64,000 bases of DNA from Eubacteriales bacterium (GCA_045540015.1 JAZQGP010000004.1:30880-94879); one strand, 5' to 3'; positions 6,262-50,545 are shown, counted from the first letter of the stretch. Notes: generated from the letters alone by a model not told the origin. Translations and numbers: made by a program.

Positions 6262-6697
6262 TTAGGTGGGGTTAAATGGAAATTTTATCTCTTATCGACC
6301 GAGATATATAAAAATGAAATTTTAGTTTCTTTTTTCGTACTTTCCACCGGAGGAAAGTACTACAAAGTCCGCCCATGGAAACTACGTTTCCCTCGGTCAC
6401 CCTTCCTTGTCGCCGACGCATTTCTATCTTACTTTTTTCAAAAAGTTTATCTCTCATCTTCAACCTATTTGTCGTACAATCCGGCTTCTATAGCTTACGG
6501 CGATTATTTGTAAGATTACAAAAATGCAACAATGGAGCAATCTCGTTTTCAGAATGCACTCAAATATGTACTTTCGTGAACTTGATGTTGTTTAAATTAT
6601 ATTTCAATTCAATAGGAAGTATCGTGAAATCGAAGTTGTTTAGACTTTGATTTCACCGTTCAAAAGTTTTTTGCTTACTTTTTTTCAAAAAAGTAAG
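6262..6697. repeat. mosaic intergenic repeat, copy A (modules m1, m3, half-H, H, S)
   Basis: Hand alignment to copies B, C and D. Fills the gap between dnaN and the topoisomerase gene. Confidence 0.8.
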
Positions 6698-6702
6698 TGA
6701 AA

Positions 6703-7815
6703 TTATCTAGATCTTACCGGCATTACAAGCTGCAAATAGAAGCTTTCTTCCTTTTCATCTTCTTCGCGAGCAATAATAACAAGACCTTTTCCGCCGGAAG
6801 CTATACGCATTACAACCTTTTCGTCATCACAGGCACGAAGCGCATCTATGAGATAATTCTGGTTGAAATTTACTTCTATGGGATTTCCTTCCATGTAAAT
6901 AGAAAGAAGGTCATTTATTTTACCCTTGTCGGTTTCACAGCTTATCTTAAGCTGGTCATTGATAAAGTTTAGCTTTGCTGATGCTTTAAGCTTGTCGTTT
7001 ATAAGAGCAACTCTTTCAAGGCTTGAAATAAGAGCATTTTTTTCCACTACTGCACTTACTTCGTATGTTGGGATGTATTTTTTGTACTGCGGAAATTCTC
7101 CTTCAAGAAGTCTTATAAGAATATAGAGATTGTCAACTTGGAAAACAATGTGTTTATTTGCAAGCTCGCATACAACATCATCATCGCTGTCATCAATGAT
7201 TCTTAGCAAATTCTGCTGTGCTTTTCCGGGAATTATAAAGCTTACATTAAGGTCAGACTTGTCCGCTGTACTCTTTTCCGTTCTCACAGAAATCCTGAAA
7301 CCGTCAATTGCACAAACCGTGAGATTTCCGCCGCTTATTTCAAACAGAGAACCTTTGAGAATCGGTTTTGAATCATCTGAGGATACTGCAAACATTGTCT
7401 TTGCAATAATTGCTCTGAGCTGTTTTCTCGATATTGTAAAGTTTGAAAAACCTTTTATGTCGGGAAGTTCAGGATAGCTTTCCGCACTTCTTCCGAGAAT
7501 TTGAAAATCTGCTTCTCCTGCTGTTATTTTTATGATGTAATTATCGTCTGTTTCTATGTTTATTTCGCCTTCGGGAAGACTGTGGATAATAGGAACTATC
7601 TGAAGGTCTGCAATAATTTTTCCTTCCCTTTCGATATTTGCAGGAACTGTAGTTTTAATTCCCTTTTCTATATCGTAGCAATAAAGGATAAGCTCGTTTC
7701 CTTTTGCTTCAATATATATTCCGCTTGCAGCTGATTCTGCAGCTTTGTTTTGTGCAACAACACTTACAGGAGTTATTGCTTTTTCAAATTGGGATTTGTC
7801 TACGGTGAAAATCAT
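6703..7815 (-). CDS. dnaN: DNA polymerase III beta sliding clamp
   Basis: 370 aa, three-domain clamp length. 'LLEGEFPQYKKYIP' and C-terminal 'LVMPVR' are typical of DnaN. A DnaA-box cluster lies directly upstream. Confidence 0.9.
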   Translation of the reverse strand: MIFTVDKSQFEKAITPVSVVAQNKAAESAASGIYIEAKGNELILYCYDIEKGIKTTVPANIEREGKIIADLQIVPIIHSLPEGEINIETDDNYIIKITAGEADFQILGRSAESYPELPDIKGFSNFTISRKQLRAIIAKTMFAVSSDDSKPILKGSLFEISGGNLTVCAIDGFRISVRTEKSTADKSDLNVSFIIPGKAQQNLLRIIDDSDDDVVCELANKHIVFQVDNLYILIRLLEGEFPQYKKYIPTYEVSAVVEKNALISSLERVALINDKLKASAKLNFINDQLKISCETDKGKINDLLSIYMEGNPIEVNFNQNYLIDALRACDDEKVVMRIASGGKGLVIIAREEDEKEESFYLQLVMPVRSR

Positions 7816-7835
7816 GGTTCTTCATCCTTTCTGTG

Positions 7836-7868
7836 TATATAAAAACATATATTTTAATTTATTTTAGG
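7836..7868. promoter_or_regulatory. AT-rich candidate DNA-unwinding element between the trio array and the dnaN start
   Basis: tatataaaaacatatattttaatttattttagg: 3 G/C in 33 nt. Confidence 0.5.
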
Positions 7869-7889
7869 TAGCAGTAGTAGTAGTAGTAT
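7869..7889. promoter_or_regulatory. DnaA-trio-like trinucleotide array
   Basis: TAG CAG TAG TAG TAG TAG TAT, lying 1 nt from the two abutting DnaA boxes at 7891-7908. 5'-TAG-3' equals the published 3'-GAT-5' trio motif. Confidence 0.65.
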
Positions 7890-7890
7890 A

Positions 7891-8062
7891 TGTGGAAAAT
7901 GTGGAAAAGCTTCGGAATGCTTATATAAGGCAGATTTGTGAGAATTTTTTATATGGATAACTACGTGGGAAACCATGTTGGAAATATGTGGATTTGTGTG
8001 GAAAACCCAGTGTGGAAAAAGTGGAAAACTATTTGTGTAAATGTGGAAAAAAATGTGGAATA
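7891..8062 (-). promoter_or_regulatory. DnaA-box cluster (11 boxes, all in one orientation)
   Basis: Five perfect TGTGGAAAA (= TTTTCCACA on the minus strand) at 7891, 7900, 7997, 8011 and 8042. Six near variants: TATGGATAA 7952, CGTGGGAAA 7964, TGTTGGAAA 7976, TGTGGATTT 7987, AGTGGAAAA 8020, TGTGGAATA 8054. Confidence 0.8.
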
Positions 8063-8072
8063 ATCAAGAGAC

Positions 8073-9476: not shown

Positions 9477-9910
9477 AATTCTTTACTTTCTGTATTTTTG
9501 CAGGTTTTGCATATACCGTAGAAAACTGTCCGTGTATTGTCGACTTCAAAGCCGTGATGAGAAAGAATGTGTTCTCCGATGCTGTCAAGAACAGGACAGG
9601 AGGCATGAAAAAGCTTTCCGCATTTTGTGCATTTGAGGTGAAAATGATTTTTACAGCCGTGAGAAGAAATAAACTGAAAGCAAGCACCTTTTGTACTGTC
9701 GGTACTGTATTTTCTCACTAATCCATCAGAAACGAGCTTTTCAACATTTCTGTAAATTGTAGCAGTTCCGACGGGATTGTTATCGGCTTTGAGCTGGTCG
9801 GAAATTTCTTCAATTGTAAGATGTCTGTCGGAATTTTTTTTCAGACATGACAGAATAAGCTCACTTTGTTTTGTTCTGTAAATCATACTTTTCTGAAGCA
9901 TATTATCCAT
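9473..9910 (-). CDS. Fur-family metalloregulator (Fur/PerR/Zur)
   Basis: 145 aa winged-helix N-terminus. Two CxxC pairs ('CTKCGK', 'CKTCK') and 'HHGF'. Its stop overlaps the start of the DHHW gene (ATGA). Confidence 0.85.
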   Translation of the reverse strand: MDNMLQKSMIYRTKQSELILSCLKKNSDRHLTIEEISDQLKADNNPVGTATIYRNVEKLVSDGLVRKYSTDSTKGACFQFISSHGCKNHFHLKCTKCGKLFHASCPVLDSIGEHILSHHGFEVDNTRTVFYGICKTCKNTESKEL

Positions 9911-9916
9911 CCGTTG

Positions 9917-10846
9917 TTAATTATTGTTTTCGGGAAGAACAAGCTGTCCGTTTCCTCTGTTTAAGATAAGAGTTATTGCACTTTTATTATTTTTAACAAC
10001 AATCTTGTGTCTGCCTTTTTCAAATTCGCCGTCAAGAGTCCAGTCAATATTTTCTTCTGTTTCGACGGTAATTTTTGGAGAAGAAAAAAATTCCAGCATT
10101 TTTCCGTTCAAATTAAAGCTTTGCAAATCCGACAAAAGCTCTACCATTTCTGCAGGATTTGAGGGATTTTTCATGAGAACAACTTCAAAAAGTCCGTCAT
10201 TTATATCAACAAGATTTTTAGGGATTCTTATAGCACCGCCGCCTACTCTTGTTGTATTGCATATAGCGCCGAAAAGGTACTTTCCTTCAAGGCTTTTTTC
10301 TTCCGTTGTAATTTTCACGTTAAATGATTTTATTTCTGTAATTTCCTTCATGCTTTCGAGAATATAAGCAAGATGTCCGAAGGTGTTTTTCAGATCTCTC
10401 GGTGTTGAATAAGAGGATTTTGTGAAAACACCGAAGGAAGCAACATATGTGAAAACTCTTCCGCCAAAGGAACCGGCATCAACTTTTACTTTTTCGCCGC
10501 AAATTATATCCTTTGCTGCCTTTAAGGGATTTGAAGAAAGCCCGAGACTTGAGGCAAAATCATTTGTGCTTCCTGCCGGAATATATCCGATAGGAACATC
10601 AATTTTATCTTCAACAACAGCAGAAACAACCTCGTTAAAAGTTCCGTCGCCGCCTATACATACGATCAAATCTTTACCGGGGGCATATTTTTGAGTTATT
10701 TCCTTGCCGCGGATGTGTTCGGTTGTCATTTGAACCGTACATTCGTAGCCTTCTGCAGAAAAAACAGAAAGAATATCAGCAAGATATTTATTGCATTTTT
10801 TCGTTCCTGCCTTGGGATTCATAACCAAAAGCAGTTTACCGGACAT
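9917..10846 (-). CDS. diacylglycerol/lipid kinase family protein (YegS/DagK-like)
   Basis: 'GGDGTFNEV' catalytic-domain motif, 309 aa, strong RBS AAAGGGGGA. Confidence 0.85.
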   Translation of the reverse strand: MSGKLLLVMNPKAGTKKCNKYLADILSVFSAEGYECTVQMTTEHIRGKEITQKYAPGKDLIVCIGGDGTFNEVVSAVVEDKIDVPIGYIPAGSTNDFASSLGLSSNPLKAAKDIICGEKVKVDAGSFGGRVFTYVASFGVFTKSSYSTPRDLKNTFGHLAYILESMKEITEIKSFNVKITTEEKSLEGKYLFGAICNTTRVGGGAIRIPKNLVDINDGLFEVVLMKNPSNPAEMVELLSDLQSFNLNGKMLEFFSSPKITVETEENIDWTLDGEFEKGRHKIVVKNNKSAITLILNRGNGQLVLPENNN

Positions 10847-10878
10847 AAAAAATCCCCCTTTTATACTATTACATACTA

Positions 10879-10907
10879 TTTTATCATTTTTAGTATATAT
10901 AAGTCAA
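10879..10907 (-). promoter_or_regulatory. sigma-A-type promoter for the lipid kinase operon
   Basis: Minus strand reads TTGACT-N17-TAAAAT. Confidence 0.55.
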
Positions 10908-11011
10908 CAGATTTTTATAAATTTAATAATAATGTAAGATATTAATTTTTATTGCCGGTTTTTTGGGAAAAAGAAAAGGAGTTGTAGTAAAATACAGCTC
11001 CGTTTGAGTTT

Positions 11012-11646
11012 TATATTTGGAAAGGTTGAAAGGGAGATTTTGTTGCCTTATCGACCGGAAAATACAAGTTTGAAACTGTAGTTTCATTTTTTCGTACTTT
11101 CCACCGGAGGAAAGTACTACAAAGTCCGCCACTCAAAAAGAAGGGATGGCTCGATTTGGAGTTATACTATCTTCTAAACTTGAAAAACTTCACGTTGTTT
11201 CCCACTTCACACTTCCAAATCTCCGCTTACTTCCTTTCTTTCGCCGTGGTGGCTTAACTACCCTCATGGTAAACATCACAACCTATTTGAACAAAAAACT
11301 GAATATTCTTGTGTTAGATAGATAGTTGATTGTTTATTCTCTAATCAACAAAACGGCACTCGAGAAAGAGCTCGCGTCGCGAAGCCCGTAAAAGCTTCAT
11401 TGATGCACGCAAGGCTCCTAAGGTTAAAGTTTTCAAGGAAGCGAAAGTCCGCGAGCTTAGGAAGAGATAACTAAGAGAACCGTAGGTGCTCTTAGTCGTG
11501 CTCTTTTGTTTCATTTTCTACACGAGTAGAAAATGAAAGCCTCCACGGCAGTGGAAAGCTACAAATTTGGTTTAAGCTCACCTCGGCGTTAGCCAAAAAT
11601 ATATAAACGAAAAAGTGAAATTGAAGTTGTTTAGACTTCAATTTCA
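11012..11646. repeat. mosaic intergenic repeat, copy B (m1, m2, m4, H)
   Basis: m1 and its 24-nt hairpin are identical to copy A. m2 is about 85% identical to copy C (inverted). m4 aligns to copy D. Confidence 0.8.
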
Positions 11647-11666
11647 CAAAGGGAAAGTTTTTCTAA

Positions 11667-12320: not shown

Positions 12321-12341
12321 AAAATCCTCCGATTTATATTA

Positions 12342-13507: not shown

Positions 13508-14677
13508 TTACTTAATTTTCTGAAGGAATTTGTCAATTCTTTCAATGGCACGGCTTATATGCTCAATCGAATATGCATAAGAAATTCTTGCAAAGCCCTC
13601 ACCCGAATCTCCGAATGCAGTACCCGGAACAATTGCACACTTCTGGTCATAGAGAAGCTTTTCGCAGAACTGCTCGGATGTCAGTCCGTATTTTCCTATG
13701 TTCGGGAACACATAGAACGCGCCCTCAGGCTCAAAGCATTCAAGCCCTATCTCGTTAAGTCCCGAAAGAAGCATTCTTCTTCTCTGATTATAGCAGTCAC
13801 GCATATATTCAATATCCTCGTCGCCGTCCATGACCGCTTTCATGCCTGCATACTGGCTCATTGTGGGCGCACACATGATTGCATACTGGTGGATTTTGAG
13901 CATCTGCTGCATAATTTCTTTCGGTGCGCAAACGTAGCCGAGTCGCCAGCCTGTCATAGCATAGCACTTTGAAAAGCCGCCGACATATATTGTTCTGTCC
14001 CACATATCAGGAATCGAAGCAAACGAAAAATGCTTTCTGCCGTAGGTAAGCTCGCCGTAAATTTCATCGGTGAGGACAACTATGTTTGTGTCCTTTAAGA
14101 CATCCGCGATTTTTCTCAAATCCTCCTCTGTCATAATACCGCCTGTGGGGTTATTCGGATAAGGAAGAACAAGCATTTTGGTTTTTGGGGTAATGTGAGC
14201 CTTTAAAAGCTCGGGAGTGAGCTTGAATTTATCCTCAACTCTTGTTTTGAGCATAACGGGAATACCGCCGGTGAGCGATGTTATCGGTGTGTAGCACACA
14301 TACGACGGCTCAACTATTAAAACCTCGTCTCCGGGTTCAACAATCGCGCGTATTGCAAGATCAATCGCCTCGCTTCCGCCAACGGTTACTGAAATTTCCT
14401 TAGATGGGTCATAAGACACATTAAAGCGTCTTTCAAGATATGCAGCTATCTGCTTTCTGAATTCCAAAAGACCGCTGTTTGATGTGTAATAGGTTTTACC
14501 CTTTTCAAGCGACTCGATTGCCGCTTCTCTTATGTGCCAGGGTGTAACAAAGTCGGGCTGACCGACCGTCAGAGAAATAACTCCCTGCATTTCGTCAAGT
14601 ATATCAAAAAATTTTCTTATGCCGGAGGGTTTTAAATCAACGGCACGCTGTGAAAGCACTTTGCTGTAATCTATCAT
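13508..14677 (-). CDS. PLP-dependent aminotransferase class I/II (aspartate/aromatic-type)
   Basis: 'PNNPTG', and 'SKCYAMTGWRLGY' containing the PLP lysine. 389 aa. Confidence 0.88.
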   Translation of the reverse strand: MIDYSKVLSQRAVDLKPSGIRKFFDILDEMQGVISLTVGQPDFVTPWHIREAAIESLEKGKTYYTSNSGLLEFRKQIAAYLERRFNVSYDPSKEISVTVGGSEAIDLAIRAIVEPGDEVLIVEPSYVCYTPITSLTGGIPVMLKTRVEDKFKLTPELLKAHITPKTKMLVLPYPNNPTGGIMTEEDLRKIADVLKDTNIVVLTDEIYGELTYGRKHFSFASIPDMWDRTIYVGGFSKCYAMTGWRLGYVCAPKEIMQQMLKIHQYAIMCAPTMSQYAGMKAVMDGDEDIEYMRDCYNQRRRMLLSGLNEIGLECFEPEGAFYVFPNIGKYGLTSEQFCEKLLYDQKCAIVPGTAFGDSGEGFARISYAYSIEHISRAIERIDKFLQKIK

Positions 14678-15381: not shown

Positions 15382-16287
15382 ATGAAAAGATTTCCCGACA
15401 ATTCAAGAGTGTGTTTTCTTGGAGACAGTATAACACAGGCAAATGGATTTATTTCTCATATCGCAGAGTATTATCATGACAATTTCAAAGAATCAAATAT
15501 AAACTTCTACAACTGCGGTATAGGCGGTACTTCAAGTGCCTCACTTTTTCAGTTTTTTGAAAGCGATGTAAAGATACACAAGCCCACCCACATTGTTCTT
15601 ATGGAAGGAATTAATGCTTCACATCGTGACATTCTCTCAAATCCTCAGAGCAGCGAGAGATACGCGGTTCTTGAAAACGCATTTGAAGCCTTCAAAAAGA
15701 ATTATGCCATTATGTGCGATAAATGTACATCCATTGGAGCAAAGCTCATAATATGTACTCTTCCGCCTTACGCCGAATATCAGAAAGAAGGAGGAGACAT
15801 TCTTCCCGGTGCATATGCGCTTCTCTCATCATATGCAGATTTTCAAAGACAGTTTGCGCATCAGAACGGCTATGAGCTTATTGACATACACGCATACATG
15901 ACAAAAGAAATGCAGACACAGGTCCTATACGGCGGTGACAGAGTTCACCCTAATGCACTTGGTCATTTTGTCATGGCAAAATGTATTCTGGAGTATCAGG
16001 GCTTTGATATCGGCGACTACAAGCCGTGTGCAGAGTACCTTTCCGACTGGATAGAAAACGTAAAAAATTACAGAAATATCATGCATGCAGAATTTCGCTT
16101 TATCCGCGATGTGTCGATATCCGAGGAAGAAAAGAAAACCATTGTTACAGATTATCTGGAAAATGAAATGTATGGAAAAAACACATGGCTTAAAGGTGTT
16201 GCGGAATTATACCTTCGCTTATGGCCGCATAAAAAAGAATATTTTGAAAACGCAAAACGAATAATGGAAGTTGAATTGAAGAAATAA
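15382..16287 (+). CDS. SGNH/GDSL-family hydrolase (esterase)
   Basis: Block I 'FLGDSITQ' and block V 'DRVHPN'. Start moved to 15382 because a TTGACA-N17-TAAAAT promoter lies inside the longer ORF-track version, and AAAGGA precedes this ATG. Confidence 0.8.
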   Translation: MKRFPDNSRVCFLGDSITQANGFISHIAEYYHDNFKESNINFYNCGIGGTSSASLFQFFESDVKIHKPTHIVLMEGINASHRDILSNPQSSERYAVLENAFEAFKKNYAIMCDKCTSIGAKLIICTLPPYAEYQKEGGDILPGAYALLSSYADFQRQFAHQNGYELIDIHAYMTKEMQTQVLYGGDRVHPNALGHFVMAKCILEYQGFDIGDYKPCAEYLSDWIENVKNYRNIMHAEFRFIRDVSISEEEKKTIVTDYLENEMYGKNTWLKGVAELYLRLWPHKKEYFENAKRIMEVELKK

Positions 16288-16294
16288 ACAATAT

Positions 16295-16327
16295 AAGGTG
16301 CCTTGGAAAAAACCAAAGCGCCTTTTT
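16295..16327. terminator. bidirectional intrinsic terminator between the convergent SGNH and AraC genes
   Basis: aaggtgccttgg-aaaaaa-ccaaagcgcctt followed by a T-run. Confidence 0.65.
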
Positions 16328-16328
16328 G

Positions 16329-17150
16329 TTATGATTTACTCTGCGCTTGTCTGTACTGACTCGGAGTAAGCCCGAAATGTCTTTTGAACACATGGAGAAA
16401 ATACTGAACCGAATTATGTCCCGAATTAAGAGCAATTTCGCTTACGGAAAGCGAGCTTGATTCAAGAAGGTTGCATGCATATTTCAAGCGAACGTCACCA
16501 AGGTATTCGTTAAAGGATTTTCCAAGGCTGCTCTTTATAAGTTTTCCTAGATATCCCGATGATACAGACAGAGTATCCGCAAGGAGGCTGAGTGAAATAT
16601 CCTGTCGGAAATTCTCGTGTATATAGGCAGTTGCCTGCTGGACAAATTCGGGAAGAGATCCCTCGTCCTTGTCATTTGACAGGCGAAGTGCATGAGAGGC
16701 AATTTCTGCAAGTATTGACCTTAATACAAGGTCCTCCGGGCTTGTTGCAATACCGTTTTCACTTTCAAGCACCCTTACTCTGTCGTCTATATACTTTATT
16801 TTTTCCTCATCAAAACTGCACATAACCGTTTTTCCCGAATGCTGAAGACGTTCTGCAAGCTTTCCGTCAAGTATTTCGGGACTGAAGCCCATATTGATGA
16901 TTTCTATATCCTCCGACGCCTCAAGAGAATGATAGTCGTAAAACGACATTATATACATGCTTCCTCTTGAAACCTCATATTTCTGGCCGTTAAGAATATG
17001 AGTTCCTTTTCCCGACACTATTATTTCTATTTCAAAGTAGTTGTGCCAGTGAACCCTTGCTTCGTAGCCTTTTTTCAATACCTTTCTGACAATGCTCAGA
17101 CCCGTAACTCCAAGAGGTCTGTCAAGGTTCATAAGAGGCTTTGATTTCAC
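16329..17150 (-). CDS. AraC-family transcriptional regulator (cupin N-domain + HTH), paralogue 1 of 3
   Basis: 'HWHNYFEIEIIVSGK' cupin sensor and C-terminal AraC HTH 'SVSEIALNSGHNSVQYFLHVFKRHFGLTP'. Confidence 0.88.
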   Translation of the reverse strand: MKSKPLMNLDRPLGVTGLSIVRKVLKKGYEARVHWHNYFEIEIIVSGKGTHILNGQKYEVSRGSMYIMSFYDYHSLEASEDIEIINMGFSPEILDGKLAERLQHSGKTVMCSFDEEKIKYIDDRVRVLESENGIATSPEDLVLRSILAEIASHALRLSNDKDEGSLPEFVQQATAYIHENFRQDISLSLLADTLSVSSGYLGKLIKSSLGKSFNEYLGDVRLKYACNLLESSSLSVSEIALNSGHNSVQYFLHVFKRHFGLTPSQYRQAQSKS

Positions 17151-17156
17151 GACACA

Positions 17157-18026
17157 TCACCTGCCTTTATTCAAAATACGTGTTTTTAAATCCTTGCTGC
17201 AGCTGTCTTTAAGCTGCTTGTATTCACCCGGTGTAATTCCGAATTTCTTTTTGAAAACATACAGAAAATACGGTACTGAATTATAACCCGCGGCGAAAGC
17301 GATATCTCCGACGGACATTTCCGAGGACTCCAGGAGATTACAGGCATACTTGAGTCTGACAGAGCCGAGATAGTCGTTAAAAGATTTGTTAAGGCTCTTT
17401 TTGAGCAGCTTTCCGAGGTATCCGGAGGATACACAAAGAGCTTCTGCAAGAATATCCAGCGAAATATCCCGTCTGAAATTTGTGTGTATGTATGCGGTTG
17501 CCTGCTGAACAAGCGGAGGAAGCGCAGCTTTGCCTGCCTCATTTGTTTTTCGTATTGCTCGTGCAAGTATTTCGGAAAGAAGTGAGCTTATGACAACGTC
17601 TCCCATGTAAATTTCGGGAGAGTTTTCGTTTTCAAGCGCCGTTACTCTGCCATCAATATATTCAAGCTCTTCTTCGCTCAGCGAACAAACAATTGCTTTT
17701 CCGGAGTTTTCGAGATAATCGGAAATTCTTGCGTCAAGAAGGTCGCGGGAAAAATTGAGATTTATCATTTCCGTTTCTTCAAGAGCGGTAAATGCATGAT
17801 AATCGTAAAACGACAGCATATACATGCTTCCGCGGGAAAGCTCGTATTCAGTTCCGTTCATGACGTGAATTGCTTTTCCCGAAAGAATTATTTCAAGCTC
17901 ACAGTAGTCGTGCCAGTGAACCGGAATTGTCCTGCCGGCATAAAGCTTTCTGCGAATTATTTCAAGATTTGTTTTGCCCAAAGGAGCTTCAAGGTTCATG
18001 AGCAGTTTTTTATCCACGCAAAACAC
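17157..18026 (-). CDS. AraC-family transcriptional regulator, paralogue 2 of 3
   Basis: Same architecture; co-linear similarity to the neighbours along the whole length. Confidence 0.88.
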   Translation of the reverse strand: MFCVDKKLLMNLEAPLGKTNLEIIRRKLYAGRTIPVHWHDYCELEIILSGKAIHVMNGTEYELSRGSMYMLSFYDYHAFTALEETEMINLNFSRDLLDARISDYLENSGKAIVCSLSEEELEYIDGRVTALENENSPEIYMGDVVISSLLSEILARAIRKTNEAGKAALPPLVQQATAYIHTNFRRDISLDILAEALCVSSGYLGKLLKKSLNKSFNDYLGSVRLKYACNLLESSEMSVGDIAFAAGYNSVPYFLYVFKKKFGITPGEYKQLKDSCSKDLKTRILNKGR

Positions 18027-18044
18027 CTCCCGAGGCTGTGGAGT

Positions 18045-18884
18045 TTAATCCGAATATAACTGTTCGGTACAGTCGCGGAGCTTTTTGTATTCTCCGGGCG
18101 TCATTCCGAATCTCTTTTTGAAAACATACAGAAAATATGTTGTTGAATTATATCCTGCAGCGGATGCAATATCGGAAATCGGCATTTGAGATGAGTCAAG
18201 AAGATTGCAGGCATATTTCATACGGATATCTCCAAGATACTCGTTGAAGGACTTGTTAAGATTCTTTTTAAGCGCTTTTCCGAGATAGCCCGATGAGACC
18301 GAAAGGGTTTGAGCAAGACTGTTAAGCGAAATATCCTGTCTGAAATTTGCATGGATATAGCCGGTTGCCTTCTGGATGAGAAGTGGAACCACGGGCTCTG
18401 ACCCGTCGCTTGTTTTTCTGAAAACAAAGGTAAGTATTTCGGACAACAGCGTGCTTAGCATAATTTCAGACAAATACCCGTTTTCCTTCAGCTCTTTTTC
18501 AAGGCTGCAGATTCGGTTCAAAACGTGCTGCATATCCTCTTGGTCAAAGCAGCAAACCAACGCTTTGCCGTTTTTTTCAAGTATGTAACTGATACGCTTG
18601 TCGGGCACATCCGGCATAAAGGAAATGTTGATAAGCTCGCAGGGTTCAAGAGAGATGTAAGAATGATAATCATAAAACGACAAAAGATACATGTTACCGC
18701 CGGTCATTTCGTATTCACGTCCGTTTATACACTGGCGCATTTTTCCCGATACAAGTATCTCAAGCTCGTAGTAATTGTGCCAGTGTATACGTGATATGCT
18801 TTTCGAAGGAATGCTTCTTCGTATAACATTGATATTTTCTGCGCCGTCGATTTTTTCAAAATTTATAAGAAGCCTCGTATCCAA
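18045..18884 (-). CDS. AraC-family transcriptional regulator, paralogue 3 of 3
   Basis: Same architecture ('HWHNYYELEILVSGK' ... 'GYNSTTYFLYVFKKRFGMTP'). Confidence 0.88.
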   Translation of the reverse strand: MDTRLLINFEKIDGAENINVIRRSIPSKSISRIHWHNYYELEILVSGKMRQCINGREYEMTGGNMYLLSFYDYHSYISLEPCELINISFMPDVPDKRISYILEKNGKALVCCFDQEDMQHVLNRICSLEKELKENGYLSEIMLSTLLSEILTFVFRKTSDGSEPVVPLLIQKATGYIHANFRQDISLNSLAQTLSVSSGYLGKALKKNLNKSFNEYLGDIRMKYACNLLDSSQMPISDIASAAGYNSTTYFLYVFKKRFGMTPGEYKKLRDCTEQLYSD

Positions 18885-24217: not shown

Positions 24218-24220
24218 AAG

Positions 24221-36792: not shown

Positions 36793-36813
36793 AGGATCCT
36801 CTCGCTTTCTCAC

Positions 36814-37228
36814 GCTTCTTGAAAGAAGCTTAGCACTTACTTTCTTGAAAGAAAGTAAGCAAAGAACTTTTGAACGGTGAAATTGATGTTTAAACAACAT
36901 CAATTTCACAACTCACCTTATTGTTATTTCAATTGAAACTTAAACAACAACAAATTAACTTTTTATATTCTTGTTAGTATTACCGATGAGGGTAGTTAAG
37001 CCACCACGGCGAAAGAAGGGAAGTCAGCGGAGATTTGGAAGGGTGAAATTGGAGATAATGTGAAGCTTTTCAGGTTTAGAAAATAGCATAACTCCAAATC
37101 GAGCCATCCCTTCTTTTTGAGTGGCGCCTTTGGGTACTTTTCAGCGTTGAAAAGTACAAAGAAACAAGCAACAGCTTCAAATTTATCAATCTCGGTCGGT
37201 AAGGTAATAAAATTTGCTTTTAATCCAC
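36814..37228. repeat. mosaic intergenic repeat, copy C (S, H, degenerate half-H, m2 inverted, m1 inverted)
   Basis: Fills the whole rbgA-polA gap. Confidence 0.8.
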
Positions 37229-37238
37229 CAAACACAAA

Positions 37239-38273
37239 CTAATCTAAAGTAATCCTTCCAATCCTGCCGTCGCGGAACTCATCAATAATGCACCGTGCCG
37301 TTCTCGGATAGTCGACTTCGCCGCCGGATACAAGAAGTCCGCGTTTTTTGCCGATAGCTTCAAAAATCTCGTGCGGTAGCTTTCCGTCTACATCCTCGCG
37401 TGAGAGCTTGTATCGGCTGTACATAAGAGAGGGATAGTCCTGCATGAGTTTTGAAACAAGCAGAACGGCGATACTTTCTATATCAAGAATTTCGTCGCGT
37501 ATAGCACCTGTAAAGGCAAGGTTAAGCCCAACTGCCTCATCATCAAACTTCGGCCACAAAACGCCGGGTGTATCAAGAAGCTCGATAAGACCGTCAACCG
37601 TTACCCACTGCTGAATACGAGTAACACCTGGTCTGTTTTCGCTCTTTGCTTTACGTTTTCCGTAAAGACGGTTAATAAGCGTTGACTTTCCGCAGTTTGT
37701 AACTCCCATTATCATGGCACGAGGAAGCTTATTCATTCCTTTTTCCTCGTATTTGTCGAGCTTTTCTTTAAGTATGCTTCTTATGGCCGGAATAATCTCA
37801 TCAATTCCCGCACCTGTCATACAGTCTGTAAAAATTACTCTGTGACCGTCCTTTGACAACTGCTCCTTATAGTAAGCATTTTTTGCAGGGTCGGAAAGAG
37901 AGCACTTGTTCATAACGGTAATAAACGGCTTTGAGCCGACAATTTCCGCAATTTTCGGGTTTCGGCTTGACACGGGGATGCGTGCATCACACAGCTCAAT
38001 TACTATGTCAATTTGCTTTAAGCTCGCTTCGATTTCACGCAAAGCCTTTGTCATGTGTCCCGGAAACCACTGAATTATTTTTGCAACTTCTCTTGCATTT
38101 GCCGCACCGGGTGAGGTCTCTTTTTTTGTTTTCGGTGCTTTTTTGGGCTTTGCCGAGTCGGTAGAGACTTTCTTGGGTGCGTGATAGAATTTTTTGTCGG
38201 ATTTTTGTTTTGCGGCGTTCTTTTTCTTTGCCGCCGCTTTGTATCCGGGTTTTATCTTCTTGTTTTCTGCCAC
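37239..38273 (-). CDS. rbgA: ribosome biogenesis GTPase A (YlqF/RbgA) with about 65-aa Lys-rich N-terminal extension
   Basis: 'QWFPGHMTKA', circularly permuted G motifs ('NKCSL' before 'GVTNCGKSTLIN'). Confidence 0.85.
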   Translation of the reverse strand: MAENKKIKPGYKAAAKKKNAAKQKSDKKFYHAPKKVSTDSAKPKKAPKTKKETSPGAANAREVAKIIQWFPGHMTKALREIEASLKQIDIVIELCDARIPVSSRNPKIAEIVGSKPFITVMNKCSLSDPAKNAYYKEQLSKDGHRVIFTDCMTGAGIDEIIPAIRSILKEKLDKYEEKGMNKLPRAMIMGVTNCGKSTLINRLYGKRKAKSENRPGVTRIQQWVTVDGLIELLDTPGVLWPKFDDEAVGLNLAFTGAIRDEILDIESIAVLLVSKLMQDYPSLMYSRYKLSREDVDGKLPHEIFEAIGKKRGLLVSGGEVDYPRTARCIIDEFRDGRIGRITLD

Positions 38274-40964: not shown

Positions 40965-40982
40965 ATGTTTCACGTGAAACAT
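40965..40982. repeat. perfect 18-bp palindrome ATGTTTCACGTGAAACAT (copy 1)
   Basis: Lies between the M23 peptidase stop and the DUF3298 lipoprotein start. Confidence 0.9.
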
Positions 40983-40990: not shown

Positions 40991-42883
40991 CTATTCGCTT
41001 ATATAATCGCCGGGGTCACGTGTTCTTCCGTCAACCAACACTTCAAAATGCAGGTGCACTCCTGTGACATATCCTGTGCTTCCCATAGCTGCAATAACAT
41101 CTCCTTGTGCCACTCTCTGGCCTTCCTCTACATAAACCTCGTTGCAATGAGCGTATCTTGTTACCGTTCCGTCGTCGTGGAGAATCTGTATGCTCAGACC
41201 GTAGCCTGAATCGTCGTGGCGTGCGTGTATTATTTCTCCTCCGTCGGAAGCCAGAATATCTGTGCCGAGCTGTGAAGCGATATCATATCCCTTGTGGAAT
41301 TCGTTGCTGTTTCCCATGATGCGCCATCCGTAACCGCTTGTATTAATACCTTCTGCCGGCATAATATACGTACCGGTTGACTTTGTTCTCTTTTCATCTT
41401 CGGTCATAGGACGCGTTCCGACCAGAAGAACTTCTGAAACGGGTGGTGTCACGATTTCTTCGGCAAGCAGTTTTCTTGATACTTCTTCTCCGTCAAGGTA
41501 TCCGACTGTGTACGTAACGTTTTTAACACCGTTTACGCCGTGAACTCCCATTCTTGTTCTGCCTTCCACAAGGTTTGGCTCTTCTGCTCGCACTGTATCG
41601 TATGGTATGGGCTCTTGAACGACAACGGTTCTTTCGATAACAACGCTGAGGGTGGTTGTTGAGTTCTGAGGTTCTGTTGAACCGATATTTTCGGATACAA
41701 TGTCTGTGACGGAACTTTCGTCTGCTGCGTTTCTGTCGGGCAGTGCGTTTGTTACACTTATATCTCCCGTTGTTGGTTGTTCTCCTGATATTGGCGTGAG
41801 CGAAAACATTTCTCTTATTTCGTTTTCTGTCATGAACAGTGTGTCGGGATACAGCCCCGATGCAACTGTCATATTATTGTAATAGGTAACACTGTCGAGA
41901 TCTATTCCGCTGTCAAGAAGGCTTGCCTTTTTAGCTTCGAGACTGTCGTTGACGGCTTTGTCCAGCCATGCTTTATATGGAGATGCGCACACCAGCATGT
42001 CGTCAACATAAAGACCGTAGCCCTCGGACATTGAGGATAATGACGCATCTCTGAATATTTTGTTGATTTCGGCGGGCTGCATTACGCTTGAAAGGTCTGC
42101 AGTGACAGGCTTGTAGGTTATGGAGCAATCAAGAGTATATGATCTTCCGAGCAGCAGCGACTCTGTTTCTTCAAACGTGCGTCGGGCACGTTCTATTATT
42201 TCAACGCTTTCTACACGCCCCGCGTGCTCTCCATCTATATACACGTCGAGTAAGGGAGCTTTTTCTACACTTGCATGTATGGTGTATGAAACACCGACCA
42301 GCGTACCGACACAAAGCGCATACGTAAGAGCTTTGCAAAGAAATGTGCCAACACCCTTTATTCCGATATGACTATATTCCATGTGTCTCCAGAATGATTT
42401 CGCCTTGCCTTTAACCGGGGTTGCGGCAATTGCCGTAATATCCGCAGTCCTTTTTGCGGCGGGAATTAGTTCAAGAAGCTTTATTGCGGCAGACCACTTA
42501 TTATGCCGCCACATTACGCTTCCGTGTCTGAACCAATTATCCGGATGCCGGTATATATTACGGTAGCGCTCCTTAAGCTGTGCACCGGAGGTATAGTATT
42601 TGTCGTTGCAGTACAGGTAAGCGGCGTTATATGCGCTTTCAAATCTCGAAAGCTTGTTGCTTCTGAAGCTTTTGTACAGCTCCTTGAAGTTTGGTTGCGC
42701 TGAAAATGTTTCACGTGAAACATTTTGCCCGCCAAGAACATTTGTTCTCGGCGTCTTTTCTTCTGTACTGTTGTTTTGGGTTGCAGTACCTCTTTTCAAA
42801 TAACGGCTCCTTTCGGCTGCAGACGGCGTTTTTATCAATTGGGTATATGCCTCTACAATAATACAGTATACATTATATACCAA
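40991..42883 (-). CDS. membrane-anchored G5-domain M23 (LytM-type) peptidase
   Basis: One TM helix, a G5 domain ('GVKNVTYTVGYLDGEEVSRK...VLLVGT'), and M23 motifs 'HKGYDIA' and 'GVHLHFEV'. The start is uncertain because the first about 60 codons contain a 24-bp palindrome. Confidence 0.8.
   Translation of the reverse strand: MVYNVYCIIVEAYTQLIKTPSAAERSRYLKRGTATQNNSTEEKTPRTNVLGGQNVSRETFSAQPNFKELYKSFRSNKLSRFESAYNAAYLYCNDKYYTSGAQLKERYRNIYRHPDNWFRHGSVMWRHNKWSAAIKLLELIPAAKRTADITAIAATPVKGKAKSFWRHMEYSHIGIKGVGTFLCKALTYALCVGTLVGVSYTIHASVEKAPLLDVYIDGEHAGRVESVEIIERARRTFEETESLLLGRSYTLDCSITYKPVTADLSSVMQPAEINKIFRDASLSSMSEGYGLYVDDMLVCASPYKAWLDKAVNDSLEAKKASLLDSGIDLDSVTYYNNMTVASGLYPDTLFMTENEIREMFSLTPISGEQPTTGDISVTNALPDRNAADESSVTDIVSENIGSTEPQNSTTTLSVVIERTVVVQEPIPYDTVRAEEPNLVEGRTRMGVHGVNGVKNVTYTVGYLDGEEVSRKLLAEEIVTPPVSEVLLVGTRPMTEDEKRTKSTGTYIMPAEGINTSGYGWRIMGNSNEFHKGYDIASQLGTDILASDGGEIIHARHDDSGYGLSIQILHDDGTVTRYAHCNEVYVEEGQRVAQGDVIAAMGSTGYVTGVHLHFEVLVDGRTRDPGDYISE
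42703..42726. repeat. perfect 24-bp palindrome AAAATGTTTCACGTGAAACATTTT (copy 2; contains the same 18-mer)
   Basis: Lies about 160 nt inside the 5' end of the longest M23 peptidase ORF. Confidence 0.9.
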
Positions 42884-43084
42884 ATAAACAAAAAAATCAA
42901 GTCAATATCTGCACAACGACAGCAAAATGGGATAATATAGTTAAAGGAAACACAAAGTTACGGGGTTTTTGCAGTAAAATTTACTATACATTAAAATTTT
43001 AACCAAAATTTGTGATAAAATGTTCTCATAAACATAATTTGTCCGTTTTGATGAAGGGCAATTACAGAAAGGAACAGGTATATT

Positions 43085-43906: not shown

Positions 43907-43907
43907 G

Positions 43908-43992
43908 CAGCGTGACGCTCGACGCTTTTTGAAAAAAGCTTGGCAAAAACATTTCCACGGTGAAATTGATGTTTAAACAACATCAATTTCAC
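43908..43992. repeat. mosaic repeat, short copy E (S-variant + H)
   Basis: H hairpin at 43960-43992 is identical to the one at 36877-36909. S-variant gctttttgaaaaaagc at 43924-43939. Confidence 0.75.
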
Positions 43993-44141
43993 AAAAGTGC
44001 ATATTTAAGCAAATCTAAAAACGGGAATGTTTAAATCTTGTTTTCAGTAAGAAACACACGCAGTCCGCAATTTCACATTTCGCCTTAGCATTATTTAATT
44101 TCAAATATCAACATAATCATTTCCCGAAAGGACAGAAAATA

Positions 44142-45008: not shown

Positions 45009-45039
45009 CAGGCAAGAGATAAAGCCGATTTCAGAACAT

Positions 45040-45085: not shown

Positions 45086-45130
45086 ATCTTATTTATAATA
45101 TTAAATTTTAACAATCATGAGGTGTGTAGA

Positions 45131-46141: not shown

Positions 46142-46179
46142 ATTTTGTGCATATACTGTCATAAAGGGGGTGACTCCGA

Positions 46180-46485
46180 GTGACAGTATTTCAGAGCATA
46201 ACGGAGATAATCATTTGTTTTTTTGCGGTGCTTGGGCTTCATTTTGCCGTGTCATGCATTTTTGACAGCATATCCTTCCGCAATGCTCCGTCAAAAACAT
46301 ATCTTTTCATTGAGCAATGCGACATAAAGAATCTTGAATATCTCATAAGACTTTATGAAAGCAGAATAAGTTCCGGCGAGTTTGATGATATGATTTGCGG
46401 TATAATGCTGCCGCAAAATATCGGACTTGACGATGAAACCTCGTCAAAGCTCTGCCGTGAGTTTGGAAACATATATTTCGTGTAA
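46180..46485 (+). CDS. small membrane-anchored hypothetical protein (101 aa)
   Basis: GTG start after AAAGGGGG. One N-terminal TM helix 'IIICFFAVLGLHFAV'. Lies 38 nt after the preceding unknown ORF. Confidence 0.5.
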   Translation: MTVFQSITEIIICFFAVLGLHFAVSCIFDSISFRNAPSKTYLFIEQCDIKNLEYLIRLYESRISSGEFDDMICGIMLPQNIGLDDETSSKLCREFGNIYFV

Positions 46486-46497
46486 AGTAGTAAGGAC

Positions 46498-46526
46498 TTG
46501 AAAAACACATAAAAATGTGGTACAAT
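46498..46526 (+). promoter_or_regulatory. sigma-A-type promoter for trkAH
   Basis: TTGAAA-N17-TACAAT with a TGn extended -10. Confidence 0.6.
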
Positions 46527-46576
46527 ATAGCTAAATAAAAGCAAAACATAATTTACCGTATCAAAGGATGATATAA

Positions 46577-47935: not shown

Positions 47936-47941
47936 GCGGCT

Positions 47942-49390
47942 ATGAATTTGAAAATGGTATTTCGCGTCATAGGACGCATACTTGCACTTGAGGCGGCAAT
48001 TCTTCTTCTGCCGCTTGTTGTATCGCTTGGTTACGGTGAAAAAACGTCGGCGGTATCCTTTGCGATAACAGCGGCGCTGTCACTTGTTATAGGCACTGTT
48101 TTACTTGTAGGCTTCCGTACAAAAAATCAGGTAATATACGCAAAAGAAGGCTTTGCAATTGTTGCTCTTGTGTGGCTGTGTATGTCGGCAATCGGTGCGC
48201 TTCCGTTTGTTATAAGCAAGGAAATTCCAAGCTATATTGATGCTTTTTTTGAAACTGTAAGCGGCTTTACTACAACGGGAGCATCAATTCTCGACGATGT
48301 TGAGGCTTTAAGCCGCGGAATGCTTTTCTGGCGAAGCTTTACACATTGGCTCGGCGGAATGGGAGTGCTGGTCTTTATTATGGCAATAATTCCCAACATT
48401 TCCGACAGGTCAATCCATATAATGCGTGCAGAGGTTCCGGGACCGGTTGTCGGAAAGCTTGTTCCGAGACTTAAGGACACGGCAAAAATTCTTTACTGCA
48501 TCTATATCGGAATTACCCTGTTTGAGGTAGTGTTTCTGCTCTTTGGCGGAATGAGCGTATACGAAAGCTTTGTTTATGCTTTCGGTACGGCAGGAACGGG
48601 AGGCTTTGGCATAAAGGCTGACAGTATTGGCTCTTACAGCCCCTATATTCAGTGGGTGATTGCAATTTTCATGCTGATTTTCGGTGTGAACTTCAACCTG
48701 TATTATCTGATATTGATAAGAAAATTTAAATCAGTGTTCAGAAGTACGGAAATGTGGACGTATCTCGGAATTGTCGCTTTCAGCACAATTATGATAATAA
48801 CAAACACAAGACATCTGTTTGAAAACCTGTCGGAAACAGCAAGACACTCTGTTTTCCAAGTTGCTTCAATTATTACAACCACAGGATATTCAACAACAGA
48901 CTTTGATTTGTGGCCTACACTTTCAAAAACAATACTTCTTATACTCATGTTCTGCGGAGGCTGTGCAGGCTCAACTGCAGGCGGTCTTAAGGTCTCAAGA
49001 GTTGTAATTCTTTTCAGGATGATGGGTAGAGAGCTTAAAAGAATGCTTCATCCGCGTTCGGTAAAAACCATAAAGCTCGAGGGCAAGAGTGTTGACGAAG
49101 GAACGCTTTCAGCGTGCGGAACATATTTTGCCGTTTACATGGCGTGTATTCTCGGGATTTTCTTTCTTCTGGGATTTGACAGCTTTGGAAACATTGAAAC
49201 AAATTTCACTGCGGCTGTGTCGTGCTTTAACAATATTGGCCCCGGCTTTAACAAGGTAGGACCGATGTTCAGCTATTCGGGATATTCAGGCATTTCAACC
49301 TTCATTCTTTCGCTTGCAATGCTTCTCGGACGACTTGAAATTTTTCCTCTTATGCTGCTTTTTAGCCCGTCCATGTGGAAAAGAGATTAA
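47942..49390 (+). CDS. trkH: TrkH-family potassium transporter
   Basis: Polytopic; 'SGFTTTGAS' and 'TTTGYST' selectivity-filter-like repeats. Adjacent to trkA. Confidence 0.9.
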   Translation: MNLKMVFRVIGRILALEAAILLLPLVVSLGYGEKTSAVSFAITAALSLVIGTVLLVGFRTKNQVIYAKEGFAIVALVWLCMSAIGALPFVISKEIPSYIDAFFETVSGFTTTGASILDDVEALSRGMLFWRSFTHWLGGMGVLVFIMAIIPNISDRSIHIMRAEVPGPVVGKLVPRLKDTAKILYCIYIGITLFEVVFLLFGGMSVYESFVYAFGTAGTGGFGIKADSIGSYSPYIQWVIAIFMLIFGVNFNLYYLILIRKFKSVFRSTEMWTYLGIVAFSTIMIITNTRHLFENLSETARHSVFQVASIITTTGYSTTDFDLWPTLSKTILLILMFCGGCAGSTAGGLKVSRVVILFRMMGRELKRMLHPRSVKTIKLEGKSVDEGTLSACGTYFAVYMACILGIFFLLGFDSFGNIETNFTAAVSCFNNIGPGFNKVGPMFSYSGYSGISTFILSLAMLLGRLEIFPLMLLFSPSMWKRD

Positions 49391-49411
49391 AACGTGAAAG
49401 GATGTGAAAGA

Positions 49412-50119
49412 GTGTTCAAGGCAATATTTTTTGATGTTGACAACACCTTGCTTGATTTTAATAAGGGTGCAGACAAGGCAATGGAAAAGGTTTTTGGCGA
49501 CCTTGGAATTCCCTTTTATCCCGATATGACGAACACCTTTCATGAGGTTAACGACGGACTCTGGAAACGTCTTGAAAAGAAAGAAATCACTCTCGAATAT
49601 CTTCACGAAATACGGTGGGAGCTTGTGCTTGAAAGATTGGGAATTTCAGGCTTTGACGGAAAAGCTGTTGAGCAGGAATTTCTTGCTGCACTGCGGGTTT
49701 GCGCCGTCAAAATTGATGGCGCCGAAGAGCTTCTCTCGTCTCTTTACGGAAAATACAAGCTGTACGTTACAAGCAATGCACCTCATTATCAGCAGGTTGC
49801 AAGACTTACAAACACAGGTCTTTTAAAATATCTTGACGACATTTTCACTTCCGAGCTTATCGGTATTGCAAAGCCCGAAAAAGGCTTCTTTGACGGCTGC
49901 TTTGAGAGGGTGCCTGAGCTTAAAAAAGAGGATGTTCTGCTTGTAGGAGATTCTATCAGTGCAGACATAAAGGGCGGTGCAGCGTACGGACTCAAAACCT
50001 GCTGGTACTGTCCCGACAAGGAAAAGGCAAAAACAAACACCCTTGCCGATTATGTAATAAACAACCTATGCGAACTTACTTTCTTGAAAGAAAGTAAGCA
50101 AAGAACTTTTCCTTTGTGA
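49412..50119 (+). CDS. HAD-superfamily hydrolase (YjjG-like subfamily IA)
   Basis: Motif I 'FFDVDNTL', motif III/IV 'VGDSISADIKGG'. GTG at 49412 is my preferred start (the ORF track uses 49394). The last about 16 codons and the stop lie inside a repeat element. Confidence 0.8.
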   Translation: MFKAIFFDVDNTLLDFNKGADKAMEKVFGDLGIPFYPDMTNTFHEVNDGLWKRLEKKEITLEYLHEIRWELVLERLGISGFDGKAVEQEFLAALRVCAVKIDGAEELLSSLYGKYKLYVTSNAPHYQQVARLTNTGLLKYLDDIFTSELIGIAKPEKGFFDGCFERVPELKKEDVLLVGDSISADIKGGAAYGLKTCWYCPDKEKAKTNTLADYVINNLCELTFLKESKQRTFPL

Positions 50120-50545
50120 AATTGAAGTTTAAACAACTTCAATTTCACGTAATTTTCCCAACAAATTTAAACCAAATTTGCAACAACTTCAATTTCACAA
50201 CTTGACATACTACAATTAAATTGTAAATTTGGAACAACATCAATTTCACAAAACTCTCTAACCAATCGAGCCTTGATTTATACCTTTAAATTAAGAATAG
50301 CTCCAATGAAGCGGCTTTGCAATCTTACAAGTTATCGCCGTAAGCTATAAAAGCCGAGAGAACAAGACAAAACAAGGTAGAAGTAATTCATATTCTTTAG
50401 AATACCATAAAAAAGATAGGCGTCGGCGATAAGGGAGAGATACTTAAGAGAACCGTAGGTTCTTTTAAGCGTGCTCTTTCGGTTACCTTTCTGCACGAGC
50501 AGAAAGAGTAACGCCTCCACGGCGAGTGGGAAGCTGCAAATTCTA
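50075..50545. repeat. mosaic intergenic repeat, copy D (S, H, two half-H units, m3 inverted, m4)
   Basis: Begins inside the 3' end of the HAD gene and ends about 70 nt before the activase gene. Confidence 0.8.

Follow-up and report, generated by a model that had tools for sequence, protein, structure and literature searches.

Shuffled hairpin modules between the genes of a gut Clostridia lineage: a candidate clade-restricted family of mosaic interspersed repeats

What are the hairpin-rich sequences that recur between the genes of a 64,000-nucleotide stretch of a Eubacteriales bacterium genome (GCA_045540015.1 JAZQGP010000004.1:30880-94879; this whole stretch is referred to here as the window), and to what kind of repeat do they belong? 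The window has a G+C content of 42%, represents an origin-proximal region of a Firmicute of Clostridia type, and probably derives from a metagenome-derived assembly. An initial annotation had described a family of modular intergenic repeats, had likened it to a BOX/BIME/Correia-type mosaic element or a set of structured RNAs, and could not place it in any known family. From the present analysis it is somewhat probable that these sequences form a non-coding, non-autonomous family of mosaic interspersed repeats, restricted to one clade, in an uncultured gut Clostridia lineage of herbivores and humans; the best fit is a previously undescribed family of the general class to which bacterial interspersed mosaic elements (BIMEs) and BOX elements belong. 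The likeness originally drawn is supported by the mosaic order of the modules, their dispersal, the covariation of one module (m4) and the rate of change of another (m2), approximately one-fifth of neutral.

Self-BLAST of the gaps, together with repeat finding, identified five gaps that share modules (6202-6702, 10847-11666, 36796-37238, 43907-44141, and 50120-50613). Of the at least six gaps and about 2.2 kb previously proposed, these five have composites of several modules, while the sixth site, at 60.2 kb, has only a lone S hairpin; the total of S, H, m1 to m4, and x11, including this hairpin, is approximately 2.1 kb. S is a hairpin of one pyrimidine arm and one purine arm, with a purine linker after it. 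H, a palindrome of 33 nt, is present as five full copies and three half-sites within the 64 kb; its half-site, AACAACWTCAATTTCAC, occurs eight times at no more than two mismatches, against 0.09 expected, and three of these occurrences (6576-6592, 50182-50198, and 50233-50249) are additional to those first annotated. The larger modules, of 100-165 nt, are m3, m4 (three hairpins), x11, m2 (a 146-nt hairpin), and m1; x11 (11273-11446) was newly recognized here and was found again in relatives.

All of the modules listed by the initial annotation were recovered by blastn self-search and repeat finding, at or within a few bases of their given positions. By blastn, m1 plus m2 at 11029-11272 matches 37221-36980 in inverted orientation (83% over 245 nt), m1 at 6256-6373 matches 11010-11130 (82%), m3 at 6378-6541 matches 50462-50297 in inverted orientation (71%), m4 at 11447-11567 matches 50422-50542 directly (80%), and the S-H unit at 36835-36909 matches 50074-50148 (91%). 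The arms of m2 alone are 91% complementary, which is better than the figure of about 85% first given for m2. Within the second gap, 10847-11008 is not repeat sequence but a promoter region, that of the DAGK gene, which is conserved. The composites and the most strongly structured modules are as follows, where h is a half-site of H and a prime marks an inverted module.

6255-6697, minus strand: composite g6, in the gap between dnaN and a topoisomerase IV (topoIV)/GyrA-like gene, from blastn and nhmmer matches; S-H-h-m3-m1, same sense as the flanking genes (S 6697-6674, linker, H 6656-6624, half-site 6592-6576, m3 6541-6378, m1 6373-6255).
11009-11663, minus strand: composite g11, in the gap between a 217-aa gene and the DAGK gene; (linker)-H-m4'-x11-m2-m1, same sense as the flanking genes (linker and H 11663-11614, inverted m4 11570-11447, x11 11446-11273, m2 11272-11127, m1 11130-11009).
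36814-37239, plus strand: composite g37, in the gap between a GTPase gene and polA; S-H-spacer-m2-m1, inverted relative to both genes (S-like hairpin 36814-36829, S 36836-36859, H 36877-36909, spacer, m2 36980-37128, m1 37126-37239).
43920-44029, plus strand: composite g44, which is short; S-H-tail, same sense as the flanking genes (S variant 43924-43939, linker, H 43960-43992, and a tail common to g6).
50075-50545, plus strand: composite g50, in the gap between a HAD hydrolase gene and a glycyl-radical activase gene; S-H-h-h-m3-m4, same sense as the flanking genes (S 50075-50098, H 50116-50148, half-sites 50182-50198 and 50233-50249, m3 50297-50462, m4 50422-50545).
60218-60241, minus strand: lone S-type hairpin with a CAAAAAC linker (GTCACTTTTTGTAAAAAGTGAC), upstream of rpsL, from a pattern scan.
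11447-11570, plus strand folding better, antisense to the flanking genes: first copy of m4, with a three-hairpin structure (fold z-score -4.6, covariation).
36980-37128, plus strand: m2, the best conserved of the modules, which forms a long imperfect hairpin (about 146 nt; folding energy -47.7 kcal/mol, z-score -4.2).

Read with S first, the composites follow a common grammar, in which S, linker, and H are followed by optional half-sites of H and then by a variable middle and end. A composite has a single H, or an H accompanied by direct half-sites at a spacing of 48-51 nt, and alternating pairs are absent; in g11 S itself is missing, with only the S-H linker left. Since m4 in g11 is inverted relative to m4 in g50, single modules flip, as do whole composites. 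That modules recur in differing orders and orientations, as first described, is true both of the window and of four related lineages. In g50, a promoter-like TTGACA-16-TAAATT (50202-50229) lies between two of the H half-sites (50182-50249), and the three half-sites of this composite are spaced 50-51 nt apart, an iteron-like phasing.

The four largest gaps of the window are all filled with repeats. Composites take up whole intergenic gaps, often within operons, and abut or overlap stop codons: in g6, S begins 9 nt past the dnaN stop codon, and in g37 the end of m1 coincides with the GTPase stop codon. The HAD hydrolase open reading frame (ORF; 49394-50119) passes through S and has its stop codon inside H, giving the tail ELTFLKESKQRTFPL-stop. 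At the other side of g37, the longest polA ORF (34231-36909) acquires a spurious N-terminal extension through S and H, the real start, with a ribosome-binding site, being at 36795. All copies do lie between co-directional genes, as had been observed, and this placement is uninformative, because 15 of the 17 window gaps of at least 100 nt are co-directional.

Related loci were collected from DnaN homologues and exact look-ups for the dnaN locus, and from activase homologues for the g50 locus; the comparisons cover about a dozen loci from five or six lineages.

L152, a metagenome-assembled genome (MAG) from NCBI and the closest lineage: approximately 70% identity at 4-fold sites; window modules present.
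L117: 96% DnaN identity, 62% 4-fold identity; window modules present.
L153, in the same 90% DnaN cluster: approximately 55% 4-fold identity; window modules present.
L155: 80% DnaN identity, 41% 4-fold identity; no window modules, only a marginal match to the m1 hairpin.
L127 and L128: 76% and 72% DnaN identity; no window modules, and tiny gaps.
L129-L132: 71% DnaN identity; no window modules.

In profile searches the window modules are confined to L152, L117, and L153, and to the activase loci L133-L135. Likewise, profile hidden Markov models of the modules have no significant match in 860 kb of unrelated control loci, which come from unrelated phyla and include, among the matches listed, single chance matches to the 17-nt H half-site. 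Modules are present in syntenic and non-syntenic gaps of independent JGI, ENA, NCBI, and Logan assemblies, which contradicts an origin of the window copies as the only ones, by local duplication.

Comparison between lineages reveals filled and empty sites at three gaps, dnaN-topoIV, DHHW-dnaN, and topoIV-GH28. The first of these is as follows.

dnaN-topoIV gap, window: 501 nt, S-H-h-m3-m1.
dnaN-topoIV gap, L117: 464 nt, S-H-m3-m1.
dnaN-topoIV gap, L152: 783 nt, m4'-m3'-X-h-m3-m1.
dnaN-topoIV gap, L153: 38 nt, empty.
dnaN-topoIV gap, L127: 35 nt, empty.

Because this gap is only 35-38 nt in L127 and L153, the composite lies inside what is elsewhere an operon junction. The gene that follows dnaN directly (3964-6201; at the same spacing of 35-38 nt in L127 and L153) encodes a GyrA/ParC-type A subunit; no B subunit, recF, or dnaA is present in the window. 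In the DHHW-dnaN gap, the window has approximately 15 nt from the stop codon to the first DnaA box and no module, as is also the case in L152 for modules, and L117, L123, and L153 have m4'-m3'-H'-S'. The topoIV-GH28 gap is short in the window (17 nt) and in L153 (15 nt); in L152 it reaches 294 nt and contains S in split form, H, and the 5' portion of m3. Downstream of topoIV in L117 (13799-14767), the GH28 gene that lies between topoIV and DXR is gone and S-H-m4'-x11-m2-m1 is found instead. A 136-aa 'gene' called at L117 14078-14488 is wholly within repeats. L117 is also without a fur gene, which L123, encoding an identical DnaN, retains.

Rearrangement is also seen at other loci. Upstream of the activase gene, the S-H-m3-m4 of the window is replaced in L133 by m3-m4 in inverted orientation and then m2-m1, and in the gaps orthologous to g50 of L133 and L135 m4 and m3 are otherwise arranged. 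Three composites (g37, the L117 DHHW-dnaN composite, and that of L133) are inverted relative to their own genes or to the orthologous composite; composites act as units able to invert. The L117 orthologue of the g11 gap retains the module order and has in addition a 140-nt S-led insert. This insert (L117 5926-6092, about 140 nt) lies between 27-nt duplicates of the m2 5' end (25 of 27 identical), with the break at the base of the long m2 hairpin, and this duplication favours recombination or template switching over a cut-and-paste event with a short duplication. The family is modular and dispersed, and its composites are present in some lineages and absent from others at the same site. The L129 genome has modular repeats of its own, unrelated in sequence, in equivalent gaps (5650-6783, 9519-10000, 11132-11629, 13868-14492, and 15903-16663), with modules of up to approximately 390 nt that are 70-100% identical; the L129-L132 species shares with the window only the S-type hairpin and linker.

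Is the sequence of the modules conserved through this turnover? The neutral baseline comes from 927 4-fold sites compared between the window and L117: their identity is 62%, equivalent to a Jukes-Cantor distance of about 0.53. Against this, cross-lineage identities are as follows.

m2: 88-91% among all four copies of the window and L117, orthologous or not; distance approximately 0.11, about 0.2 of neutral.
S-H: 74-94%.
m1: 57-91%.
x11: 76-88%.
m4: 52-86%.
m3: 54-74%.

Thus m2, S-H, and some copies of m1 are conserved well above neutral, and m3 and orthologous copies of m4 drift at a nearly neutral rate. For m4 it is the structure that is retained: across seven copies 88.8% of cells are paired and 12 of 39 pairs are changed on both sides, by projection of the structure of one copy on all seven, which are few sequences related by descent. 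None of 500 shuffles reaches this, and slid partners are 42-53% paired, with 0-5 such pairs. A module that is nearly neutral in sequence yet keeps its hairpins is under selection for the hairpins. Four variants of H are set apart by an A:T pair turned into T:A and by a T:A pair turned into C:G, with a G-T wobble, and the TAAAC loop is fixed. Compensated stem changes are also seen in the diverged m2 copy of L133 (GAAGGG/CCCTTC against GGAGAG/CTCTCC); covariation in m2 as a whole is weak, as four of its five copies hardly differ. The preferred folding strand is constant for each module (m4 in 7/7 copies, m2 in 5/5, and S-H in 7/7, the last on the opposite strand), a preference that stems from G-U pairs. 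As the preferred strands disagree within a composite, no composite is one RNA folded throughout in one sense.

The S module has properties of its own. Its left arm, CTTACTTTCTTG, coincides with the native coding sequence at the C-terminus of topoIV (QLTFL-stop), even in the window (3964-4010), where no repeat follows; in L152 (7386-7450) and L117 (13761-13830) the topoIV stop codon is in the S loop. The end of the HAD gene uses the same codons in frame, as ELTFLKESKQRTFPL-stop, through S into H. S exists in six variant classes, drawn from the window, L117, and the L129/L131 species, and in all six the purine linkers (CAAAGAAC, CAAAAAAC, CAAAAAC, and CAAAGAAAAC among them) have a G position and an A-run length that track the purine arm and its pyrimidine partner. 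The density of sites with a hairpin and such a linker is 0.9-2.8 per 10 kb in these genomes, and controls have 0.15 per 10 kb. Judged from sequence, this three-way covariation would be explained equally by mirror symmetry (a triplex), by alternative Watson-Crick pairing, or by partial duplication.

Searches for known families and for coding or mobilizing functions were negative. As first reported, no reading frame is conserved, none being open in all copies of any module, so that small proteins were discarded as an explanation. No transposase, tRNA, integrase, or HUH enzyme was found in the window with Pfam and Rfam; the Pfam scans covered 48 of approximately 55 gene-sized ORFs, seven small ORFs lying outside them. 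The RAYT (REP-associated tyrosine transposase; Y1) gene, REP being the repetitive extragenic palindromic unit, is present neither in the window nor among the called genes of the relatives' loci. Rfam gave no match at gathering score and none at E<=1 over the whole window on both strands, and three composites had no BLAST match in phages or plasmids. When the left end of each composite was compared with the reverse complement of its right end, the scores were within the shuffled range for all five. With no Rfam, phage, or plasmid match, no inverted repeat of the insertion sequence (IS) or MITE (miniature inverted-repeat transposable element) type, and no transposase, the statement that the repeats fit no known family has held. 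Literature searches turned up no account of repeats of this kind in gut Clostridia, Ruminococcus-like or other.

In metagenome-contig and viral-contig collections, the 33-nt H pattern had no match and the m2 core pattern chance matches only; evidently these collections do not contain the clade, since the H of L117 (JGI, another collection) fits the pattern. Further candidates were rejected. H and S are not Rho-independent terminators, as a clear T run follows only the H of g11, that of g50 is marginal, and S is followed by CAAAGAAC; the SPRITE-like arrangement of a stem and a U-rich tract on the transcribed strand was not found, and single modules have no consistent flanking promoter or terminator. 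H differs in sequence from true parS sites. Integron attC sites, retrons, diversity-generating retroelements, and CRISPR were set aside in the absence of cassettes, reverse transcriptase, or arrays, and a single RNA over a whole composite was rejected on the disagreement of preferred strands.

Read data and transcript assemblies give weak indications of copy number and expression. A faecal metagenome includes, at low depth, a strain that is 99-100% identical; in it the summed word depth is 9-13 for the S-H and m4 bins and 1-3 for the flanks, summed word depth not being copy number. Several contigs of relatives begin inside repeats (L123, L133-L135, and L152), an effect that multi-copy sequence has on assemblies. 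Modules are present in contigs of three metatranscriptomes: a 228-nt contig has the 3' half of m2, m1, and 25 nt of the GTPase gene end (90% identity to 37036-37263), a 497-nt contig contains m4, and several others have S plus linker in other contexts. The locus was found in none of the stranded RNA or isolate sequencing runs.

Under the interpretation as mosaic interspersed repeats, independent hairpin modules would be the building blocks, each able to be flipped, dropped, or duplicated, and composites would be gained, lost, inverted, and re-assorted between sister species. New arrangements may arise at the DNA level through recombination or template switching between copies; alternatively, an enzyme acting in trans and encoded elsewhere, RAYT or IS200/IS605-like, might recognize the single-stranded hairpins. 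As many composites sit between genes that are operon-adjacent in relatives, they are presumably transcribed with their neighbours, and the copies that persist would be only those with hairpins compatible with, or useful for, expression of the flanking genes, possibly through RNA 3'-end protection, as processing sites, or by partial termination.

Several observations weigh against this interpretation. There is no mobilizing enzyme in the window or in approximately 150 kb of relatives' loci, and neither a target-site duplication nor a conserved target motif is definable at the filled/empty junctions, where the flanks are too diverged between filled and empty sites for an insertion signature to be defined. 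The metatranscriptome contigs are unstranded and of low depth and may include DNA. The best-folding strand of m4 is antisense to the flanking genes in five of the seven folded copies, or in seven of nine when the m4 copies of L133 and L117 14056-14233, oriented by profile matches, are included, and a simple role as co-transcribed RNA punctuation cannot account for every module. The conservation of m2 is unusual for junk DNA and would equally fit a function at the level of the host.

A rival view, to be entertained only tentatively, is that the modules benefit the host as structured RNAs, whether as small-RNA genes or as leader or intercistronic elements acting in cis, multi-copy for their function and turned over by duplication and loss. 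It would account for m2 changing at approximately 0.2 of neutral, with every copy about 90% identical across species, loops included; for the three hairpins of m4 kept through 12 compensated pairs; for the consistent strand that G-U pairs give to m4, m2, and S-H; and for the modules in metatranscriptome contigs. However, the same module is found in sense and antisense beside unrelated genes (dnaN, polA, topoIV, activase, and DHHW) and is therefore not a gene-specific regulator, sister lineages lack the modules in the same gaps with no visible consequence, m3 and orthologous m4 drift near-neutrally, and neither an Rfam match at E<=1 nor a consistent promoter or terminator at single modules was found. 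A further step, rather doubtful, is to see not selfish DNA but domesticated nucleic-acid devices between genes, in which S might be a three-part switch, with triplex or alternative pairing over the stop codon, purifying selection might maintain m2 and m4 as strand-specific structured RNAs or as structures in single-stranded DNA, and the modules would jointly set the 3'-end stability, processing, or read-through of operon mRNAs. If true, this would be an intergenic punctuation system without a described counterpart.

Three other explanations are less probable still. It is unlikely that H with its direct half-sites, and possibly S, are double-stranded sites for a repressor, a nucleoid protein, or an organizer of the origin region, with the rest as passengers. 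A 33-bp palindrome, half-sites of g50 50-51 bp apart on the same helix face with two bracketing the promoter-like sequence, and an origin-proximal window with a DnaA-box cluster and two parS sites speak for such a role; the variants of H, however, have paired changes that keep the stem and a fixed, asymmetric TAAAC loop, as a hairpin predicts and an operator read by a dimer does not, the true parS is a different sequence, and H is at gene 3' ends as often as near promoters. Descent from classical MITEs, as decayed deletion derivatives of an IS with terminal inverted repeats mobilized by a DDE transposase, is very unlikely: the size of 235-820 nt, the intergenic location, and the presence/absence between relatives would suit it, but end-to-end inverted-repeat scores are within the shuffled range in all five composites, no short target-site duplication was seen, the window has no IS, and modules rearrange independently of composite ends. 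That the repeats are an artefact of assembly or a purely local duplication, with no wider family, is hardly credible; repeats are prone to mis-joins and the assembly is probably metagenome-derived, but the same modules are found, syntenic and non-syntenic, in independent JGI/ENA/NCBI/Logan assemblies of four related lineages, and the faecal metagenome gives 99-100% identical pieces across the locus.

How do the repeats compare with known systems? BIMEs composed of REP or palindromic units are known from Enterobacteria and from Pseudomonas/Stenotrophomonas (Nunvar et al., 2010, PMC2817692). Like these, the present family joins short palindromic units and conserved extra motifs into mosaic intergenic elements with no coding capacity, which are species-specific, dynamic between relatives, located between co-directional genes, and, here presumably, co-transcribed. 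It differs in that H is single or has direct half-sites, rather than being in regularly alternating orientation, that the non-palindromic modules are far larger (100-165 nt) and individually structured, that the stems are A/T-rich rather than G+C-rich, and that there is no RAYT in the window or the relatives' loci. Among the pneumococcal BOX, RUP, and SPRITE repeats, BOX is modular, boxA-boxB(n)-boxC with a variable module number and a size of 67-637 bp (Croucher et al., 2011, PMC3049150). The Firmicute host, modularity, extensive predicted RNA structure, co-transcription (presumed here), modification of gene ends, restriction to close relatives, and slow turnover are all points of likeness; there is no evident similarity to the modules here, the two groups being set apart by eye on motifs and module architecture. 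BOX and RUP have terminal inverted repeats and target-site duplications, whereas here the former are absent and the latter unseen, and, unlike in BOX, modules flip independently and several are conserved at approximately one-fifth of the neutral rate across species.

Palindrome-associated elements derived from IS200/IS605 also lack terminal inverted repeats and target-site duplication and have hairpins with a preferred strand. Their subterminal hairpins at both ends have a possible parallel in S-H, which stands at one end, and in the S-like hairpin of m1 (GTACTTT...AAAGTAC) at the opposite end. Here, in contrast, no conserved tetra- or pentanucleotide target is seen by the left end, where the bases that precede S (GCGAA, TAGCA, TTTCA, and CTCGA) have only the final A in common, no TnpA/TnpB gene was found, and the internal shuffling of modules is not predicted by peel-and-paste. 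The BoxC or PIT family of E. coli consists of repeats of the intrastrand-triplex type. S resembles it in having a pyrimidine arm, a loop, a purine arm, and then a purine linker that covaries with the arm, and differs in overlapping stop codons and in a covariation that fits alternative Watson-Crick pairing or partial duplication equally. The family thus falls outside BIMEs, as judged by alternating REPs, outside BOX and MITEs, as judged by inverted repeats and duplications, and outside terminators and every Rfam family.

Other features of the window lie outside the repeats. Its genes include dnaN, the topoIV/GyrA-like gene, polA, ruvAB, recR, rpsL-fusA, a microcompartment locus, and genes for G5-M23 and DHHW proteins. 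Directly upstream of dnaN (7836-8062) there is a dense cluster of DnaA boxes in the same orientation, five of them perfect TTTTCCACA together with variants; a DHHW-family gene adjoins it, no dnaA is adjacent, and the cluster is kept in L117, L123, and L153. Two perfect parS sites (TGTTTCACGTGAAACA; 40966-40981 and 42707-42722) bracket the G5-M23 peptidase gene, consistent with an origin-proximal location. The cumulative GC-skew minimum is at approximately 42884-43084, with a sharp switch of coding strand (minus-strand genes to the left, plus-strand genes to the right), about 35 kb away from the DnaA-box cluster. Three tandem paralogous genes (16329-18884) have a period of 867 nt and 67-74% DNA identity; the first, which is the one covered by the Pfam scan, encodes an AraC-family regulator. 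In the microcompartment shell-gene region, a 290-nt direct repeat (55078-55367 and 55557-55846, 82% identical) probably represents duplication of a BMC-domain gene.

Much is known of dispersed mosaic repeats in streptococci and a few Proteobacteria, but they are essentially undescribed in the uncultured Clostridia, which are dominant in the gut of herbivores and humans. In this lineage they fill the largest gaps, including those inside essential operons (dnaN-topoIV and GTPase-polA), and rewrite the ends of genes, as at the HAD C-terminus. They cause spurious ORF calls, such as the 136-aa 'gene' of L117 and the N-terminal extension of polA, as well as breaks in metagenome assemblies, and so bear on MAG quality and annotation. 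The S module, with a stop codon in its loop, a three-way covariation, and a distribution that extends beyond the family, is a testable candidate for a nucleic-acid structure of an unusual kind. With composites that are rapidly gained, lost, and shuffled and individual modules that are strongly conserved, this family is a good system in which to ask whether such repeats are parasites, regulators, or both.

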